The position numbers and the translations under genes were made by a program. This document shows positions 296-28,845 of a DNA stretch of 64,000 nucleotides, one piece after another (the stretch's first letter is position 1; every line of letters starts with the position of its first letter). The notes below the pieces were generated by a model, which made no database searches, was not told the DNA's origin, and saw nothing but the letters and a program-made list of their open reading frames with translations. The DNA comes from Octopus vulgaris (taxonomy: Eukaryota): contig OX597822.1 in NCBI GenBank assembly GCA_951406725.2, positions 6,262,001 to 6,326,000 on the forward strand. The letters run 5' to 3'.

Positions 296-618
296 TTATA
301 GAATAGTCCTTCTGAATGGGATCTGGGTGTTATTCCATTCGGACTTTCGGTTGAGAGTAGGTTTGTATTCTTGTATACAAACAGCTTCTGTGACCTGTCT
401 CAACATTGCATCGGTGGGATTTGTTGATAGGATGTTCAACTTAAGCTCCCCTAAGGATCCCTTGTGGCAGTCTACAGCATGTTGGTAGAAGATGGAGTTT
501 GGCTTCCTTTCAATGTAGTTGTCCAGGTGTTCTTTGAACCTATCATTGATGCTTCTAGAGGTCTCACCTATGTATGACTCTGGGTTAGTCGCGCAAGCTC
601 CCTCCTGGCACTTAATCC

Positions 619-620
<2 letters not shown>
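296..620 (-). mobile_element. Penelope-like element remnant: C-terminal GIY-YIG endonuclease domain, 5'-truncated at a (TA)n tract
   Basis: Minus-strand frame YRIKC-x9[17 protein letters not shown]...HAVDCH...RQVTEAVCI...PTLN matches the PLE GIY-YIG pattern (Y-x-I-x-C, YIGET, R-x2-EH, E, LN). It runs open to the stop at 296; upstream is the (TA)n at 621-713. Confidence 0.8.
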
Positions 621-1284: not shown

Positions 1285-1324
1285 GGCGCAGGAGTGGCTG
1301 TGTGGTAAGTAGCTTGCTAACCAG
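1285..1324 (+). mobile_element. SINE family A, 5' 40 bp (A-box part); the remainder resumes at 3547
   Basis: ggcgcaggagtggctgtgtggtaagtagcttgctaaccag matches the start of the full-length copies at 11676, 28845(-), 48856(-). Confidence 0.92.
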
Positions 1325-1331
1325 ACATGCG

Positions 1332-1371
1332 CAGTTAGTCGGTTGCTTCTTGTTGAGCTAGAGTGGACGTG
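1332..1371 (+). promoter_or_regulatory. Internal Pol II core promoter, Inr + DPE-like
   Basis: cagtt/ttagtc Inr-like motif at 1332-1340 and GGACGTG at 1365-1371 (about +29 from the A at 1337), at the extreme 5' end of the insertion. This arrangement is known from jockey/I-type LINE promoters. Confidence 0.55.
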
Positions 1372-2005
1372 AGTCCAACTAAAGAAAAAAGACCAAAAAC
1401 GGAAAGTTGTCGAGGTAAGTGATTTTGTTTATTGTGAGTTGGGCATAATTTATTGCGTGCCAATTATTATTTCAGTAGGTTGTGTCCAACTCTGAGACAA
1501 TTTCGCCTGCGCTAGGCGGCTGCCGTTTTTGTGTTCATTGAAAAAAAAAAAAAAAGAAAAAACAGTGGAGGGGCGTATACTCAGAATTCAATACAGTTAC
1601 TGTTAAAATTACCGTTGGCAGTAACCAGTGCTGTGTTTGAGTTTGCTGAATTTATTCCCTTGTCAGAGTACTTCGCAAGAAAAGTATAAAAATAAGCCAC
1701 TATTGGATTACCTTTCGGACCCATTTTTGTGGAGGTTGTGTTGCAGTTGCGGCGTTCAGGTTCAACCCAGGCCGGGTGTACTGCAGAATATTTTTGCTGT
1801 GTTTTTTCTGTTTATTAACTTTCTTTTGAACTTCATTTACCCCTCCCCCCTTTTGTTTTTTCTTTATTGCGACTTTCCGTTAATTTCTTCCCTTCTGTTG
1901 TGCTTTCTCCTTTTTGTTTTTTCAAAAATCTATCAAATTTATTTAGACTTTTGAACTTTTTTCTTCCTGCTTTTGAGTCTAATTTGAATATATTTTTTAA
2001 AAAAC

Positions 2006-3250
2006 ATGGCAATGAAAAATAACAAAGTTTTGGAGTGGGAAATCATACCACCCAAAAAGTGGTTGAAGGACCGTGAAGATAGGACGGTGGTGTTGAGAAC
2101 CTACTCCAAGGCACTTGACACCATCGCCCTATTCGAAAAGACGGCAATTGAGGAGGAGTTGGAGGAGTATTTGCCAACAATTAAATTCATTTCCAGGGGT
2201 GTCAAATATGGAACGGTGTGGTTGCTGTTTGACACCCCTGAAGAGGCTTGCAAATTTGCTAGCGAACCCTTGGAGGGTAAGGAAATCTTATTCCTGCCCA
2301 CTTACAAAAAAAAGAAATTGATGAAAGCTTGGATCTGCGGACTGCCACCCGACATAGAACCCGAGTGGATAGAGGAGACTATCCGCCGGGGTCTGGGTGA
2401 CAGCGAAACTAAGCTCCTCAATGTAAAAGTTCTTCCTGCGGCTGCTTGGGTTGGCTCGAAAGCAGTTTTGACCCTGTGGACCCAATCAGCCAATCTGGTT
2501 TTTCCAGATTTTTTGAAAATGGCCGGGTGCAGGTACCCGGTGATGCTTGAGGGTCGCCCCCCTAAGTGTCATCGGTGCTTGGAGTCCGGCCACATAAAGA
2601 AGAACTGTCCTCGGGAACAAAATAGGATCCCGGAACAGTTAAGTAAAACCCCTCTAGAAGAGGGAACGATAACGGCCGAGAAAGCAGAGGACTCCTCAAG
2701 CAGAGGCCGAAAGAGGAAGGTGAGCAACAATGGGTGCTCACCAAAGGATAATAGGGATGAGGAGAGGAGGGCGAATCTTCCAGCCACGGAGGAGACGCAC
2801 CCTCCCTCAGTTGAAAAGGGAAAAAAAAAGAAAAAGAGGAAGAAAAACGGGACGTTGCCGGCTGTCAGTGTGGCACCGGAATGTCGCGGAACTACGTCGG
2901 TTGGGGTTGTGCCACCGACAAGAGAAGGAATACCGTTGGCGGAAACTGTGCCGCCAACGAAAGAACTGAATGTATTGGTCCTCTTCTATAGAGGAGGAGA
3001 AATTGAAAAAGTGATGGAAGAGCACTACAAGGGAGCACCTTTAGCCTTCACACAGGACCCCGAATGGCCTCCGCAGGTAGCTGTGGAGGCCGTGGCGTTC
3101 GACGTGACGCTAGGGCTAAAGGAGCTCAATGAAGACTATAACTTGGTCCCGGGCGACGCGAACTCGGAACTTGACTACGTTCTGAGGGAGGCGTGGTTGA
3201 TGGTGGAGGGCGCGGGCACAAGCTATTTCGAGGACGATATGTATTATTAG
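2006..3250 (+). CDS. L1/Tx1-type ORF1p (gag-like RNA-binding protein): RRM-like N-terminal half, CCHC zinc knuckle, basic low-complexity linker, unknown ~95-aa C-terminal domain
   Basis: Uninterrupted 414 aa, GC-richer than the flanks, start context aaaaacATGG. Motifs GTVWLLFDTPEEA and KAWICGLPPDI (RNP-like), PKCHRCLESGHIKKNCP (C-x2-C-x4-H-x4-C), and NLS-like RGRKRK and KGKKKKKRKK. Confidence 0.85.
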   Translation: MAMKNNKVLEWEIIPPKKWLKDREDRTVVLRTYSKALDTIALFEKTAIEEELEEYLPTIKFISRGVKYGTVWLLFDTPEEACKFASEPLEGKEILFLPTYKKKKLMKAWICGLPPDIEPEWIEETIRRGLGDSETKLLNVKVLPAAAWVGSKAVLTLWTQSANLVFPDFLKMAGCRYPVMLEGRPPKCHRCLESGHIKKNCPREQNRIPEQLSKTPLEEGTITAEKAEDSSSRGRKRKVSNNGCSPKDNRDEERRANLPATEETHPPSVEKGKKKKKRKKNGTLPAVSVAPECRGTTSVGVVPPTREGIPLAETVPPTKELNVLVLFYRGGEIEKVMEEHYKGAPLAFTQDPEWPPQVAVEAVAFDVTLGLKELNEDYNLVPGDANSELDYVLREAWLMVEGAGTSYFEDDMYY

Positions 3251-3376
3251 TAATGGACTTAAGTCCAAAAATTGAAAAATTGTAAGAGGATTAATACCTC
3301 GTTTTGTATTAATAATGGACTGCTAAGCCCAAAATTGGAAAAATTGTAAGAGGTTTAATACCTCGTTTTGTGTTAA
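3251..3376 (+). repeat. Tandem duplication of a ~62-bp unit in the 3' UTR of the ORF1-only element
   Basis: taatggact...aaattgtaagagg.ttaatacctcgttttgt.ttaa at 3251-3312 and 3313-3376. Confidence 0.9.
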
Positions 3377-3546
3377 TCTTTTTAAAAAGAACAATGTTTT
3401 AGAGAAGCAAAAGTCGGCGGGCGCTTTCTGTCTTCTCCCATCCTTATCATCTTTCTTTCATTATCATTCACCTCATTAATGTCCTCGTCCAGCCCGCAAA
3501 GCTAACTTAATCTGTGTACTGCCTTTATGGCAAATGTTTTGAAATA

Positions 3547-3936
3547 AAGTAGCTTGCTAACCAGCCACATGGTTCCGGGTTCAGTCCCACTGTGTGGCAC
3601 CTTGGGCAACTGTCTTCTGCTATAGCCCCGGGCCGACCAATGCCTTGTGAGTGGATTTGGTAGACGGAAACTGAAAGAAGCCTGTCGTATATAGGTATAT
3701 ATATATATGTATGTGTGTTTGTGTGTCTGTGTTTGTCCCCCTAGCATTGCTTGACAACCGATGCTGGTGTGTTTACGTCCCCGTCACTTAGCGGTTCGGC
3801 AAAAAGAGACCGATAGAATAAGTACTGGGCTTACAAAGAATAAGTCCCGGGGTCGATTTGCTCGACTAAAGGCGGTGCTCCAACATGGCCGCAGTCAAAT
3901 GACTGAAACAAGTAAAAGATTAAAAGAGAGAGAGAG
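3547..3936 (+). mobile_element. SINE family A, remainder of the interrupted copy
   Basis: Continues ccacatggttccgggttcagtccc (B box), ccttgggcaa core, central TA/TG tract, and tail gtcaaatgactgaaacaagtaaaag. Confidence 0.92.
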
Positions 3937-3967: not shown

Positions 3968-4230
3968 GGCGCGTGGCTCAGTGGTTAGAGCATTCGGCTC
4001 ACGATTGTAAGGTCGTGAGTTCAGTTCCCGGCGACGCGTTTTGTTCTCAAGCAAGCCACTTTATTTCACGTTGCTCCAGTCCACTCAGCTGGCAAAAGTG
4101 ACTAGTACCTGTGTTTGAAAGAACCAGCCATGTCGCATTCTGTGTCTGAGAACTACGTTAAGGGTACTCGTGCCTGTAGAGTGGTCAGTCATTTGCATGT
4201 TAGCTTCACGAGCAAGCTGTTCTGTTGACA
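3968..4230 (+). mobile_element. tRNA-derived SINE (family C)
   Basis: A box tggctcagtgg and B box gagttcagttcc, then caagccactttatttcacgttgctccagtccactcagctg body. A related head lies at about 57920. Confidence 0.75.
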
Positions 4231-4509: not shown

Positions 4510-4909
4510 TATTCTTTTCTATTCTAGGCACAAGGCCCGAAATTTTGAGGGAGGGGGCCAGTCGATTAGATCGTCTAGTACGCAACTGGTACTTATTTAA
4601 TCAACCTCGAAAGGATGAAAGGCAAAGTCGACCTCGGCGGAATTTGAACTTAGAACGTAAAGACAGACGAAACACCTATTTCTTTACTACCCACAAGGGG
4701 CTAAACACAGAGGGGACAAACAAGGACAGACAAACGGATTAAGTCGATTACGTGGACCCCAGTGCGTAACTGTTACTTATTTAATCGACCCCGGAAGGAT
4801 GAAAGGCAAAGTCGACCGCGGCGGAATTTGAACTCAGAACGTAACTGCAGACGAAATACGGTTACACATTTCGCCTGGCGTGGTAACGGTTCTGCCAGCT
4901 CGCCGCCTT
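4510..4909 (-). mobile_element. Two adjacent/nested family-B SINE copies with different 3' tails
   Basis: aaggatgaaaggcaaagtcgacc.cggcggaatttgaact.agaacgtaa occurs at about 4611-4660 and 4795-4844. Head reverse complement (ctgccagctcgccgcctt) ends at 4909. Confidence 0.85.
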
Positions 4910-6706: not shown

Positions 6707-7548
6707 ACTTTTTTTTTCTTCTTTCAAATTTTCTTCCATTTCTTGCCGAGTGTCTTCCCGACTCCTAGGGCAAAGAAACTCATAGTGTATATTGGTAGGC
6801 CATTAAACCAAACTCAGTAGTTCGTTCATTTTTTTTTTTTTTTAAATTTTTTTTTTTTTTAAAGTTAAATTAAAATGCATGAGCAGCAACAGTTCTCACA
6901 TCGACAATGCTCTTCTCAATACGTGTGATGTACCAGTTAAGACAATCTTTTGCACTTCTTGCAGGGATGGTAAGCCAGGGATCATTCTCATATAATTTTC
7001 GGTTCCCTTCTTGATCATTCCTAGTGCTCCTACGATCACTGGTATTGTAACCGCCTTGAGATGCCACATTTTCTCAATTTCAATGAGTAGGTCTTTATAT
7101 TTTCTGAGCTTGTCAAACTCTTTCGCTGAGATATTATGATCACAGGGGATGCTCATGTCGATCAATAAGCAAACTTTATTGTTTTGGTCTTTCACAACAA
7201 TATCTGGTTTATTGGCCTTGATGGTTCGGTCTGTATGTACTGGAAAATCCCACAGAATGGTTACATTTTCTCCTTCAGTTACAGCCTCAGGGTGGTGATT
7301 ATACCACTTGTCGGCAGTTTTGATATTGTAATGCCGACTTATTAGCCAGTGAAGATATTGGCCAACTCTGTCATGTCTTAATTTATACTCCACTGGTGCT
7401 AAGACTTTACATCCAGAGATTAGGTGGTCCACTGTTTCAATCATGTCGTTGCAGAATCGGCATTTTGGGTCTGCTCCATTTTCATCACATTGGCCTGGTA
7501 GTTCCGGGTTGATAGGCTTTGGTCTTGAGCAGCCAGGATGAAACCTTC
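6707..7548 (-). mobile_element. R4/Dong-clade non-LTR retrotransposon 3' fragment (zinc knuckle + restriction-like endonuclease + 3' UTR)
   Basis: EGFILAAQDQ...CRFC...HLISGC, RHDRV, KPDIVV, CLLIDMSIP, KEFDKLRKY, IPVIVGALG (ORF 6896-7444); bounded by (ATT)n on both sides. Confidence 0.9.
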
Positions 7549-7606
<58 letters not shown>

Positions 7607-7610
<4 letters not shown>

Positions 7611-8970
7611 TAGTTTTATTTTTATAGCGTGCTTTCACTTCACTACCGAGCGCAGCTCTGTGTGCCTTGGGTATGTGCTGTGATTTGTTGTGATGCTCTG
7701 ATGGTTATTGTATGGAAAGTGCTCTGCGTAGGATGTGTGCAGTGCCTAGTAGTGCAATTTTCTGTATGATATATGTGTTTGTAAGTCCTGGTGTTTTTGT
7801 TATGTATTTGTCTGAATATTTTTTTATCATGCCTAATGCACCTACTATGATAGGAATTGTTTCTGTTTTCAGATTCCACATTCTAGTTACCTCTATTTCC
7901 AGGTCTTTGTATTTTGAGAGTTTCTCCATTTCTTTTAGAGACACGTTGTCATCTGCCGGTATTGATACATCAATTAGAAAGCATTTTTTTCTTCATGATC
8001 TCTGACAACTATATCTGGTCTGTTGGCCTTAATTTCTCTATCTGTGTGTATCGGCATATCCCAGAGTATGGTTGCTTTCTCGTTTTCTGTAACATTTTCT
8101 GGTGTGTGCCTATACCATCTTTTTTCTGTTGTTATTCCCTCTGTTTCTGCTTTGAGTCCTGAGCTTCTCAACCATTGCTGGGTTCTTTCTTTGTCTATTT
8201 CTTTTGCGTTTAGTTTAGTGCAGTATTTACCATGAAGGGGCTTTTCTTGCCATCGTTTTATCATGGTTCGTTGCTGTTCTATTTTTAGTTTGGATTTCAT
8301 TTGTTTTATAGCTTTTGTTGTTTCTTCATCATCTTCTTCTTCTTCTTCGTGTTTATTAGGTGGTATGATTTCTTGTTTGTATTTGTCAGCTTCCTTAAAT
8401 ACCGAGAACAGTTTTTTGTTTTGCTCGTGTTTTGCTGCTATCTGGATCAGTTTTCCTTCCTTCTGAAGTAGGTATTTTTGCAGTCCTATGGTGGTTATTT
8501 TATAGTAGTTTTCCAGCTGTATAAGGCCTCTACCACCTTCTATACGTTGTATATATAGTCTTTCTATGTCAGATTTTGGGTGATGCATCCTAGATCCTGT
8601 CAGTATTTTTCTTGTTTTCCTATCTATTTTGGACAGTTCATTTCGTGTCCAGTTAAGGATATTGTAGCTGTAACTTATAACTGGGACAGCTAAAGTGTTG
8701 ATACCTATTATCTTGTTTTTAGCATTGAGCTCTGTTTTTAGTATTGATCTAACTCGTTTATAATATTCTTTTTTTATTTTCTCTTTCATTTATGTGTGTT
8801 GTGTCTTATCTAGTTCATGGATTCCTAAGTATTTGTAAGTTTGGCTTTGGTCTAATTCTTTTATTTCATTGGTTTTATCTAGTGTGATGTTGTTACTTTT
8901 AACTAGTTTTCCTCTTTTCATGGTTACTTTGGCGCATTTTTCTAATCCAAATTTCATATCTATTTCATAT
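7607..8970 (-). mobile_element. R4/Dong LINE 3' fragment (RT C-terminus/thumb + RLE), frameshifted, zinc-knuckle region deleted
   Basis: YKYLG at about 8820-8840, INTLAVPVISYS, ERLY..R.EGGRGL, GLKAETEG joined directly to ITTEKRWYRH, RPDIVV, IPIIVGALG; (ATT)n both sides. Confidence 0.9.
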
Positions 8971-8971
8971 C

Positions 8972-9020
<49 letters not shown>

Positions 9021-9023
<3 letters not shown>

Positions 9024-9451
9024 TTGTTCTATTTTAATAGCGTGCTTTCACTTCACTACCGAGCGCAGCTCTGTGTGCCTTGGGTATGTGCTGTGATTTG
9101 TTGTGATGCTCTGATGGTTATTGTATGGAAAGTGTTCTGCGTAGGATGTGTGCAGTGCCTAGTAGTGCAATTTTCTGTATGTTATATGTGTTTGTAAGTC
9201 CTAGTGTTTTTGTTATGTATTTGTCTGAATATTTTTTTATCATGCCTAATGCACCTACTATGATAGGGATTGTTTCTGTTTTTAGATTCCACATTCTGGT
9301 TACCTCTATTTCCAGGTATTTTGAAAGTTTCTCCATTTCTTTTAGAGAAACGTTGTCATCAGCCGGTATTGATACATCAATTAGAAAGCATTTTATTTCT
9401 TCATGATCTCTGACAACTATATCTGGTTTGTTGGCCTTAATTTCTCTATCT
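9021..9451 (-). mobile_element. R4/Dong LINE short 3' fragment, same subfamily as 7607-8970
   Basis: Near-identical RLE C-terminus (LEIEVTRMWNLKTETIPIIVGALG) and 3' UTR. Confidence 0.9.
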
Positions 9452-12789: not shown

Positions 12790-13725
12790 ATGCTTACACA
12801 AGCAAACACGATTTTTGCAGTACCTTATAGAGTGTTTCTAAAGTTTCCAGATGTTTTTCTCGGATTGGTTGGTATTGAACCCAATGCTCCGATGACAGTA
12901 GGGATAACCTTTTATGTGTGAATCTCGTAGCTGTCATATCTTAGCGATTTCAATTCTCAGGTCTTCATATTTATAAATCTTTTCTCTTTCTCCCATAGTA
13001 TGCTGATCTCCTGGCACTACCACATCAATTATCAGGGATTCCTGTTTGTCCCTCCTAAAGGTTATTATATCGGGCCTTTGGTGCTCTAACACCTTGTCTT
13101 TCTGGAAGTCAAAGTTCCAGAAGATTTTTATTTTCCTCTCTCCGTCCATTGGCTTTCCCGGTGTATGTTGGTACCAAGCACCCGTTACCTCGTATCCATA
13201 TTTCCGACATAGTAGCCAGTGGAGGTGTTGGGTTACCTTGCCGTGTCCGCGCTTGTACTCATTTTGTGCAAGACTTTCACAAGCGCTAACAATGTGAGTC
13301 ACGCTTTCGACCCTCTTCCCATACATTCTGCTGAGGTCCGTTGCACTTGTGTGGTAGATATCCCTTTTCACACAGTTGGTACACAATGCCTGATCCTAGG
13401 CAGCGATGATTAGGCTTTCAGTCTTCTTTTTTAGGTCACCCTCGCTGAACCACCTCCATGATGATTTGTGATTCTTTAAGTTGTGAGTTTCAAGGTGGAA
13501 CCGATCATGTAATTCCATGCAGAGTAAGGTTTCTTCTCTCGTTGGCTGTTCGTAATCGGAATTCATAAGCACTCTCAAGTCCATTTGTGGTAAATCCTTC
13601 TGCTTAGCAGCATACTGTAGCAGTTATTCTGTACTGTTTACCAAATATTCTGCCATGTTTCTTCTTTCACTGTTGAAGCACTCCTGTACTCTAATCAATC
13701 CATATCCCCAATTACACCTCTTCTA
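12790..13725 (-). mobile_element. Older R4/Dong LINE 3' fragment
   Basis: LKKKTESLIIAA, ESVTHIVSACESLAQ, LHWLLCRKYG, RPDII, LIIDVVVPGD, KYEDLRIEIAK; stops and frameshifts; (ATT)n follows at 13732. Confidence 0.85.
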
Positions 13726-28446: not shown

Positions 28447-28845
28447 CTTTTACTTGTTTCAGTCATTTGACTGCGGCCATGCTGGAGCACCGCCTTTAGT
28501 CGAGCAAATCGACCCCGGGACTTATTCTTTGTAAGCCCAGTACTTATTCTATCGGTCTCTTTTGCCGAACCGCTAAGTGACGGGGACGTTAACACACCAG
28601 CATCGGTTGTCAAGCAATGCTAGGGGGACAAACACAGGCATACAAACATATAGACACACACATATATATATATACATATATATGACAGACTTCTTTCAGT
28701 TTCCGTCTACCAAATCCACTCACAAAGCATTGGTCGGCCCGGGGCAATAGCGGAAGACACTTGCCCAAGATTCCACGCAGTGGGACTGAACCCGGAACCA
28801 TGTGGCTGGTTAGCAAGCTACTTACCACACAGCCACTCCTGCGCC
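28447..28845 (-). mobile_element. Full-length SINE family A
   Basis: Full reverse-complement match to the family. Confidence 0.93.

Follow-up and report, generated by a model that had tools for sequence, protein, structure and literature searches.

An ORF1-only retroelement family at a fixed site in the head of an octopus SINE, likely copied by a site-specific LINE

How can a retroelement that encodes a protein and no reverse transcriptase (RT) become a family, and what places its copies? A 64,000-nucleotide stretch of Octopus vulgaris DNA (contig OX597822.1, positions 6,262,001 to 6,326,000; hereafter the window) raises this question. It holds a 2.2-kb unit, flanked by a target-site duplication (TSD), whose single open reading frame (ORF) resembles the ORF1 of long interspersed elements (LINEs). 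Our data suggest, with a probability of about 0.72, that the unit belongs to an ORF1-only family at a fixed site in the head of a short interspersed element (SINE), likely copied by the endonuclease and RT of a site-specific, probably Tx1-type LINE. Because the unit is RT-less and sits at one fixed spot of a SINE, it likely borrows the site-specific enzyme of a larger partner element.

The unit and its SINE target

Comparison of sequences across the window showed that the 18-mer at 1307-1324 is repeated at 3547-3564 (18/18), with no extension in either direction. The 2,222 bp between these TSD copies (1325-3546, plus strand) comprise a 681-nt leader (1325-2005), one ORF of 414 aa (2006-3250) and a 3' untranslated region (UTR) of 296 nt. 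The 3' UTR begins with a tandem duplication of 64-bp period found by repeat detection (3245-3377), of which single-unit variants exist (joints skip 63 nt). Across six frames, the longest stop-free stretch in the 3' UTR was 50 codons, so no ORF2 fits. These measurements agree with the initial annotation, made from the sequence alone, which had described a 2.2-kb unit with a perfect 18-bp TSD, one intact 414-aa ORF, a ~295-nt 3' UTR and no ORF2 remnant. The terminal AATAAA that it reported is present (3543-3548), but the final two A lie in the right TSD copy; there is no poly(A) tail in the unit sequence, and AATA directly abuts the TSD. An Rfam scan of the unit gave no match at family thresholds.

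The unit splits one copy of an abundant SINE, whose halves form its two flanks. The 5' piece of this SINE's head (1285-1306, plus strand) can be aligned to nine further heads in the window and carries an A-box-like motif (1295-1305). The rest of the SINE (3565-3925, plus strand) carries a B-box-like motif (3578-3588). Together, the flanks match an uninterrupted SINE copy (28846-28438) at 94% over 410 nt. The same 18-mer is found once, uninterrupted, in this intact copy (at 28823, minus strand), and the TSD is therefore a true target duplication. The insertion point falls after the A-box-like and before the B-box-like motif; both motifs were located by eye, by their resemblance to the box consensus. 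Neither Rfam nor ARAGORN called a tRNA in the SINE head, so a tRNA origin of the SINE is unconfirmed. One of the ten SINE heads in the window is interrupted, by this unit. The chance of such a site is ~1 in 13,000 per insertion (ten sites, 128,000 strand positions of the window). The SINE target, the unit's most distinctive property, had been overlooked in the initial reading of the flanks. The element's first five bases (1325-1329) recur in the SINE at 3567-3571, two bases past the TSD, by chance or as 5' target mimicry.

Evidence on other copies came from contigs of public sequencing runs. Six runs were examined: X1 (organism A), X12 (organism B), X18 (organism C), and X2, X4 and X16, which were guessed to be RNA and used as sequence evidence alone. 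X12 was read fully and X1 to 80%. We observed that contigs containing the unit's tail continue as SINE at loose ends 3555-3558 (30 contigs in X1, 44 and 11 in X12; 85 in total from these two DNA runs), with a reference that held 14 nt of the TSD only. Diverged tails also ran into the target, at 3458-3575 in X1 (16 differences), 3399-3560 in X16 (7 differences) and 3423-3560 in X4 (6 differences). Relative to the three tail bins before it, the TSD bin had a depth of 0.37-0.59 (X1) and 0.45-0.75 (X12). Among the 24 of 293 loose ends listed, no group at 3544-3548 had a different flank. Counted on 3' flanks only, the target accounts for more than the 20% of flanks by which PMC4494074 recognises a repeat target. 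On this sequence evidence, many family copies sit at one fixed position in the SINE head.

The ORF1 protein and its selection

We modelled the protein with AlphaFold2 (44 sequences). For residues 11-200, the predicted local distance difference test score (pLDDT) by block was 89-98, and the model shows two beta-alpha-beta-beta-alpha-beta domains and a zinc knuckle without a long coiled coil; confidence was low beyond. The first domain is a predicted RNA recognition motif (RRM) at about aa 14-102 (2045-2311, plus strand; pLDDT >90). In structural comparison it matched the La RRM 1zh5 over residues 14-103 (Z 9.1, root-mean-square deviation (rmsd) 2.6, 83 aligned). The second predicted RRM, at about aa 103-183 (2312-2554, plus strand), matched U2AF65 RRM1 5w0g over residues 103-182 (Z 8.2, rmsd 2.6, 73 aligned). 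Tandem-RRM proteins headed the Foldseek list (best E 1.2e-4). L1 ORF1p was missing from the 50 fold matches listed, which excludes nothing. A C-x2-C-x4-H-x4-C motif at aa 188-201 (2567-2608, plus strand) gave the only Pfam match (zf-CCHC, E 0.0077, short of the curated cut-off), and 21 of 44 aligned relatives also matched zf-CCHC. The motif had been noted earlier together with an RRM-like region, for which structure prediction had been proposed as a check; the model resolves that region into two predicted RRMs.

RRMs directly before a CCHC knuckle define a type I ORF1 (PMC4120745). The protein here is predicted to have this fold, with two RRMs and the knuckle, and these domains are predicted to bind the element's own RNA. 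A lysine-rich tract at aa 271-280 (2816-2845, plus strand) lies in a low-confidence linker of the model and is a possible nuclear signal, judged by composition. The C-terminal region (aa 321-403; 2966-3214, plus strand) had low model confidence, and five of the six variants listed at 3046-3175 were synonymous. Residues 316-414 matched neither the Atlas nor the 78 relatives fetched.

A profile built from the protein and a 64% identical homologue retrieved 70 proteins at E ≤0.001 among 1.84 billion. The nearest named homologues were Octopus sinensis proteins (for example LOC115225585, 64% identical). Octopod names (O. sinensis, O. vulgaris, O. bimaculoides, Argonauta hians) were carried by 12 of the 20 relatives looked up. 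These octopod ORF1-like proteins, from uncharacterised genes, share the RRM-RRM-CCHC core, but their C-termini are unlike this one. Four long relatives (P0006, P0014, P0025, P0040) have a common C-terminal motif that is absent here, and many are annotated as uncharacterised host genes. Separately, a distant relative was found on four contigs of 1,849-1,930 bp (P0004, P0072, P0073, P0074); the constant length could reflect another short ORF1-only unit.

To assess selection, we used the 40 of 172 variants listed, 27 of which fall in the ORF. Of these 27, 17 were synonymous, whereas changes of the same types would be expected to give 8.2 (P = 0.0004); the synonymous share was 12/17 in the RRM-CCHC part and 5/10 in the rest of the ORF. 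The leader contains one ATG, at 1327 and followed by a stop three codons later, compared to 7.8 expected; a number as low was reached in 4 of 5000 dinucleotide shuffles. The synonymous-biased variants and the ATG-depleted leader imply that the protein is selected; the variants indicate purifying selection on the ORF. The initial annotation had called the 5' end promoter-like. A downstream promoter element (DPE) exactly +28 from an A is not supported, as the candidates were one base off when placed by hand. We also rejected a leader intron. A donor-like site is present at 1415, yet YAG acceptors preceded by ≥75% pyrimidines were absent, and the X2 contig is unspliced.

The type of the protein bears on the clade of the partner. 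It is unlikely, in our view, that the same SINE-targeting family depends on a partner outside the Tx1 clade. Type I ORF1s are widespread and not exclusive to Tx1, being found also in the I, Jockey, R1, L2 and CR1 lineages (PMC4120745); no Pfam model places the RRMs in a clade, and the unit has no RT. Against a non-Tx1 partner, the targeting of other transposons is a described Tx1 habit (PMC4494074), and 13 recently active L1-Tx1 families are reported in O. vulgaris (PMC13282606). Such ORF1s have also been tied to Tx1 in non-mammalian animals (PMC5203782). The Tx1 traits found here are a type I ORF1 (not Tx1-exclusive) and a repeated-sequence target (3' flanks only), and the partner is probably a member of the Tx1 clade. 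We take the single knuckle and the 18-bp TSD to fit L1/Tx1 as well.

Copies, tail and partner

The stretch or part of it was present in 20 of the 24 runs listed, which came from 9 studies and three organism codes; no run labelled as RNA was listed among these 20. All 30 bins of the stretch were covered in three DNA or unlabelled runs. In X12, one leader contig had a depth of 3,509 compared to a median of 48.6 for 16 listed contigs, roughly 72 copies. Leader contigs of X18 had depths of 356 and 432 compared to 8.2 for 8 listed contigs, roughly 44-53 copies. The family thus has roughly 40-70 or more copies with a leader and many more tails, across three organism codes. Depth in X12 climbed from 5' to 3': it was 3.5-4.5k for single leader contigs, then 9-28k near the stop and 38-44k at 3503-3510, a gradient that 5' truncation and a shared tail would produce. 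Marks of family amplification and target-primed insertion were therefore observed, namely the TSD and, by rough depth ratios, more 3' than 5' ends. The window allele at four synonymous sites had a depth of 2,342-27,554 in X1, 0-167 in X12 and 0 in X18. Window alleles that are deep in X1 only point to a young subfamily amplified in one lineage. A multi-copy unit, and a young, protein-coding, ORF1-only retroelement, were what the initial annotation had proposed, and these tens of copies, lineage-specific alleles and synonymous-biased variants support it; its refuting case of a single-copy unit does not fit.

The terminal tail of ~160 nt (3384-3546, plus strand, ending in AATA) occurs in many more copies than does the ORF. 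Depth in X12 stepped from 21k at 3383 to 120k at 3392 and 244k at 3410, and contigs of X4 and X16 joined at 3384-3410 from long, dissimilar upstream sequences (agreement 0.61). The step and the dissimilar joins together mean that the last ~160 nt are common to other elements. One tail-sharing element would be the partner; none was seen to encode ORF2. The tail showed no likeness to the host SINE: none of the 10 strand comparisons did better than 33 of 300 shuffles. A borderline match was found between tail positions 3496-3509 (plus strand) and the reverse complement of the target site (12/14). Dinucleotide shuffles scored as high in 24 and 57 of 2000 cases, and base shuffles, with a longer query, in 97 of 1000. 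A predicted fold paired 3496-3509 with the TSD, but with z = -0.49. We regard the tail-target complementarity as a hint from base matching. Tail variants at 3505, 3506, 3510 and 3514 are frequent, and all four positions lie within the target-complementary motif or next to it.

The ORF1-only state extends beyond the copy in the window. A 2,083-nt contig of X2 spans 1314-3374 with 9 substitutions and 4 gaps, three of them unplaced so that the frame is not readable. An X16 contig (3171-3424; 1 substitution, 2 gaps) runs continuously from the ORF into the 3' UTR, and an X4 contig covers 3194-3334 with 1 substitution. No branch leading away after the stop codon, such as into an ORF2, was seen among the loose ends listed. 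A search for the partner in metagenomes gave 53 protein-pattern matches, 0 of them confirmed, and 0 matches for a tail-plus-target pattern. As no autonomous partner was recovered, trans-mobilisation and Tx1 membership are inferred.

Several observations weigh against an ORF1-only family that is mobilised in trans to SINEs. The partner ORF2 was not recovered, and the 515 candidate proteins include no longer fused relative, itself a weak negative. Beyond the 24 of 293 and 24 of 1,354 loose ends listed, an ORF2 branch of lower support or random flanks are possible. Depth dips at 3236-3261, to 10.6-13.8k in X12 from 28k before and to 1.1-2.8k in X1. The near-identical contigs may be alleles of the same locus, and a second full-length copy with both flanks was not seen among the run contigs. 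The 5' junction of other copies is represented by one X2 contig, with 11 nt of the TSD matched and 22 more letters unaligned. Copy numbers derive from contig depths, which when summed do not equal copy number. The choice of the four lineage-specific sites followed inspection of the variant table, and some of the synonymous excess may be a legacy of an ancestor that had ORF2.

Some of these points would also be expected if the unit were an internal deletion or a prematurely terminated copy of one or few origins, with most relatives carrying ORF2. Depth does fall around the stop codon, and most loose ends lie outside those listed. The dip, however, coincides with the number-variable 64-bp tandem duplication, and X12 depth across 3236-3300 holds at 10-30k, similar in magnitude to the end of the ORF. 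In other studies, contigs pass from the ORF into the tail with 1-9 substitutions, no post-stop branch appears among the 24 loose ends, and a longer fused protein is missing from the candidates (weak evidence). We consider such a deletion slightly less likely again than a partner outside Tx1, and favour an established ORF1-only family.

About as improbable is a tail-SINE junction that formed once and was co-amplified as a composite including the SINE remainder, without repeated targeting. Only 3' junctions were sampled in number, and the 5' junction is known from this copy and one contig, as such a composite would allow. Against it, a SINE head lies upstream of this copy together with a perfect TSD. 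The SINE continuations of tail contigs agree at 0.66-0.76 within groups, so the SINE copies downstream of the tails differ, and one X4 contig passes from the tail into a different SINE variant. In addition, the SINE position of the junction is constant even for tails that have diverged by up to 14%. These data argue for repeated insertion at a fixed target.

A retrocopy of a host ZCCHC3-like RNA-binding gene, the other refuting case of the initial annotation, is very unlikely: an Atlas cluster carrying ZCCHC3 RNA-binding domains ranks 6th with a score of 0.90, and relatives are annotated as octopus genes, but the tens to hundreds of copies, the 5'-to-3' depth gradient, the fixed target and the missing poly(A) do not fit, and no RBD_ZCCHC3 match was found for the 44 relatives among 25 of 37 families listed.

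The window contains other repeats. A second, different SINE-like head follows directly after the host SINE (3969-4038, plus strand; weak tRNA match of 22.1 bits, E 0.24), and another repeat at 4577-4859 has two 99-nt copies that are 88% alike and 184 nt apart. A stop-free frame with a YIGET motif (296-620, minus strand) resembles the GIY-YIG endonuclease end of a Penelope-like element. Several fragments separated by AAT runs (6896-9450 and 12934-13326, minus strand) had no informative Pfam match; we take them to resemble the C-terminal restriction-like endonuclease part of R4/Dong-type LINEs.

Proposed mobilisation and comparison with known systems

In the mechanism we propose, the unit would be transcribed, its ATG-poor leader would be scanned to the ORF, and the ORF1 protein would coat its own RNA in cis. 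The ORF2 protein of the partner would recognise the shared ~160-nt tail and nick the SINE between GGT and AAG. Priming would take place on a short A-run common to tail and target, and a second nick would follow 18 nt away. A dispensable and very abundant SINE as target would supply many harmless landing sites. More tentatively, the unit could belong to a long-lived, independent octopod lineage whose members encode a protein, parasitise a SINE-targeting LINE and nest in a SINE. During priming, positions 3496-3509 would then pair with the target or with read-through target RNA, in a partly RNA-guided process. The ORF1-only state would be an old strategy that has diversified, with relatives at 20-30% identity, instead of a recent deletion. 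We think this extension doubtful.

Our literature search found no paper on cephalopod elements that are ORF1-only or target SINEs; the family may already be contained in Repbase, Dfam or the Zenodo library of PMC13282606. In the portions available of that O. vulgaris repeat paper, 'non-autonomous' and 'ORF' are absent from the text, and 'HAL1', 'target' and 'ORF1' from the supplement. The available parts of PMC8967140, PMC9115989 and PMC4758252 contain nothing on an ORF1-only SINE-targeting element. The search did not find an ORF1-only LINE combined with transposon targeting in a SINE target, each strategy being known separately. The family would extend ORF1-only LINE derivatives to cephalopods, with a type I ORF1, and its coupling to a fixed SINE target would make a parasite system of three levels. 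With many dated copies at a single known base, it would offer a natural test of why a passenger keeps ORF1 (cis preference or help to the partner) and of how sequence specificity arises in an apurinic-type endonuclease. In octopus annotations, such ORFs appear as uncharacterised genes, and repeat classification based on RT misses them.

Non-autonomous LINEs that retain ORF1 are an established class, including HeT-A, HAL1 and Ag-Sponge (PMC5786205), and HAL1 is the ORF1-only half-L1 family of mammals (PMC5753468, PMC5786205). Like HAL1, the unit appears to be a non-autonomous LINE derivative that keeps ORF1 only and was amplified as a family. It differs in its predicted type I ORF1 (two RRMs and a CCHC knuckle), whereas the mammalian L1 type is a coiled-coil/RRM/CTD protein (Transposase_22). 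HAL1 carries a poly(A) tail; the present unit has none, and it has a fixed SINE target and a mollusc host. The HAL1-like label of the initial annotation therefore holds as an analogy only: by its modelled ORF1, the unit works like HAL1 but is no HAL1. HeT-A (Jockey-derived) and Ag-Sponge (CR1-derived) are likewise LINE derivatives with ORF1 and no RT, and the places where HeT-A lands are restricted, too. Both belong to other clades; the present unit lands in a SINE head, with a TSD of 18 bp.

Tx1 LINEs target other transposons and have non-coding passengers (PMC4494074, PMC8869645). Described targets include Tx1D for Tx1, Mariner-N4_AMi for Tx1-Mar, a Harbinger for Tx1-9_AMi and long terminal repeat (LTR) elements for Tx1-8_Crp/Tx1-4_AMi, with SINEU-3 as a passenger (PMC4494074). 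The present family resembles them in its fixed site in another mobile element and in being a non-autonomous passenger that would share a partner's target. It differs in that the target is a SINE and not a DNA or LTR element, and in that the passenger encodes a selected protein. Overall, the unit joins two known strategies, that of the ORF1-only LINE derivative and that of transposon targeting.

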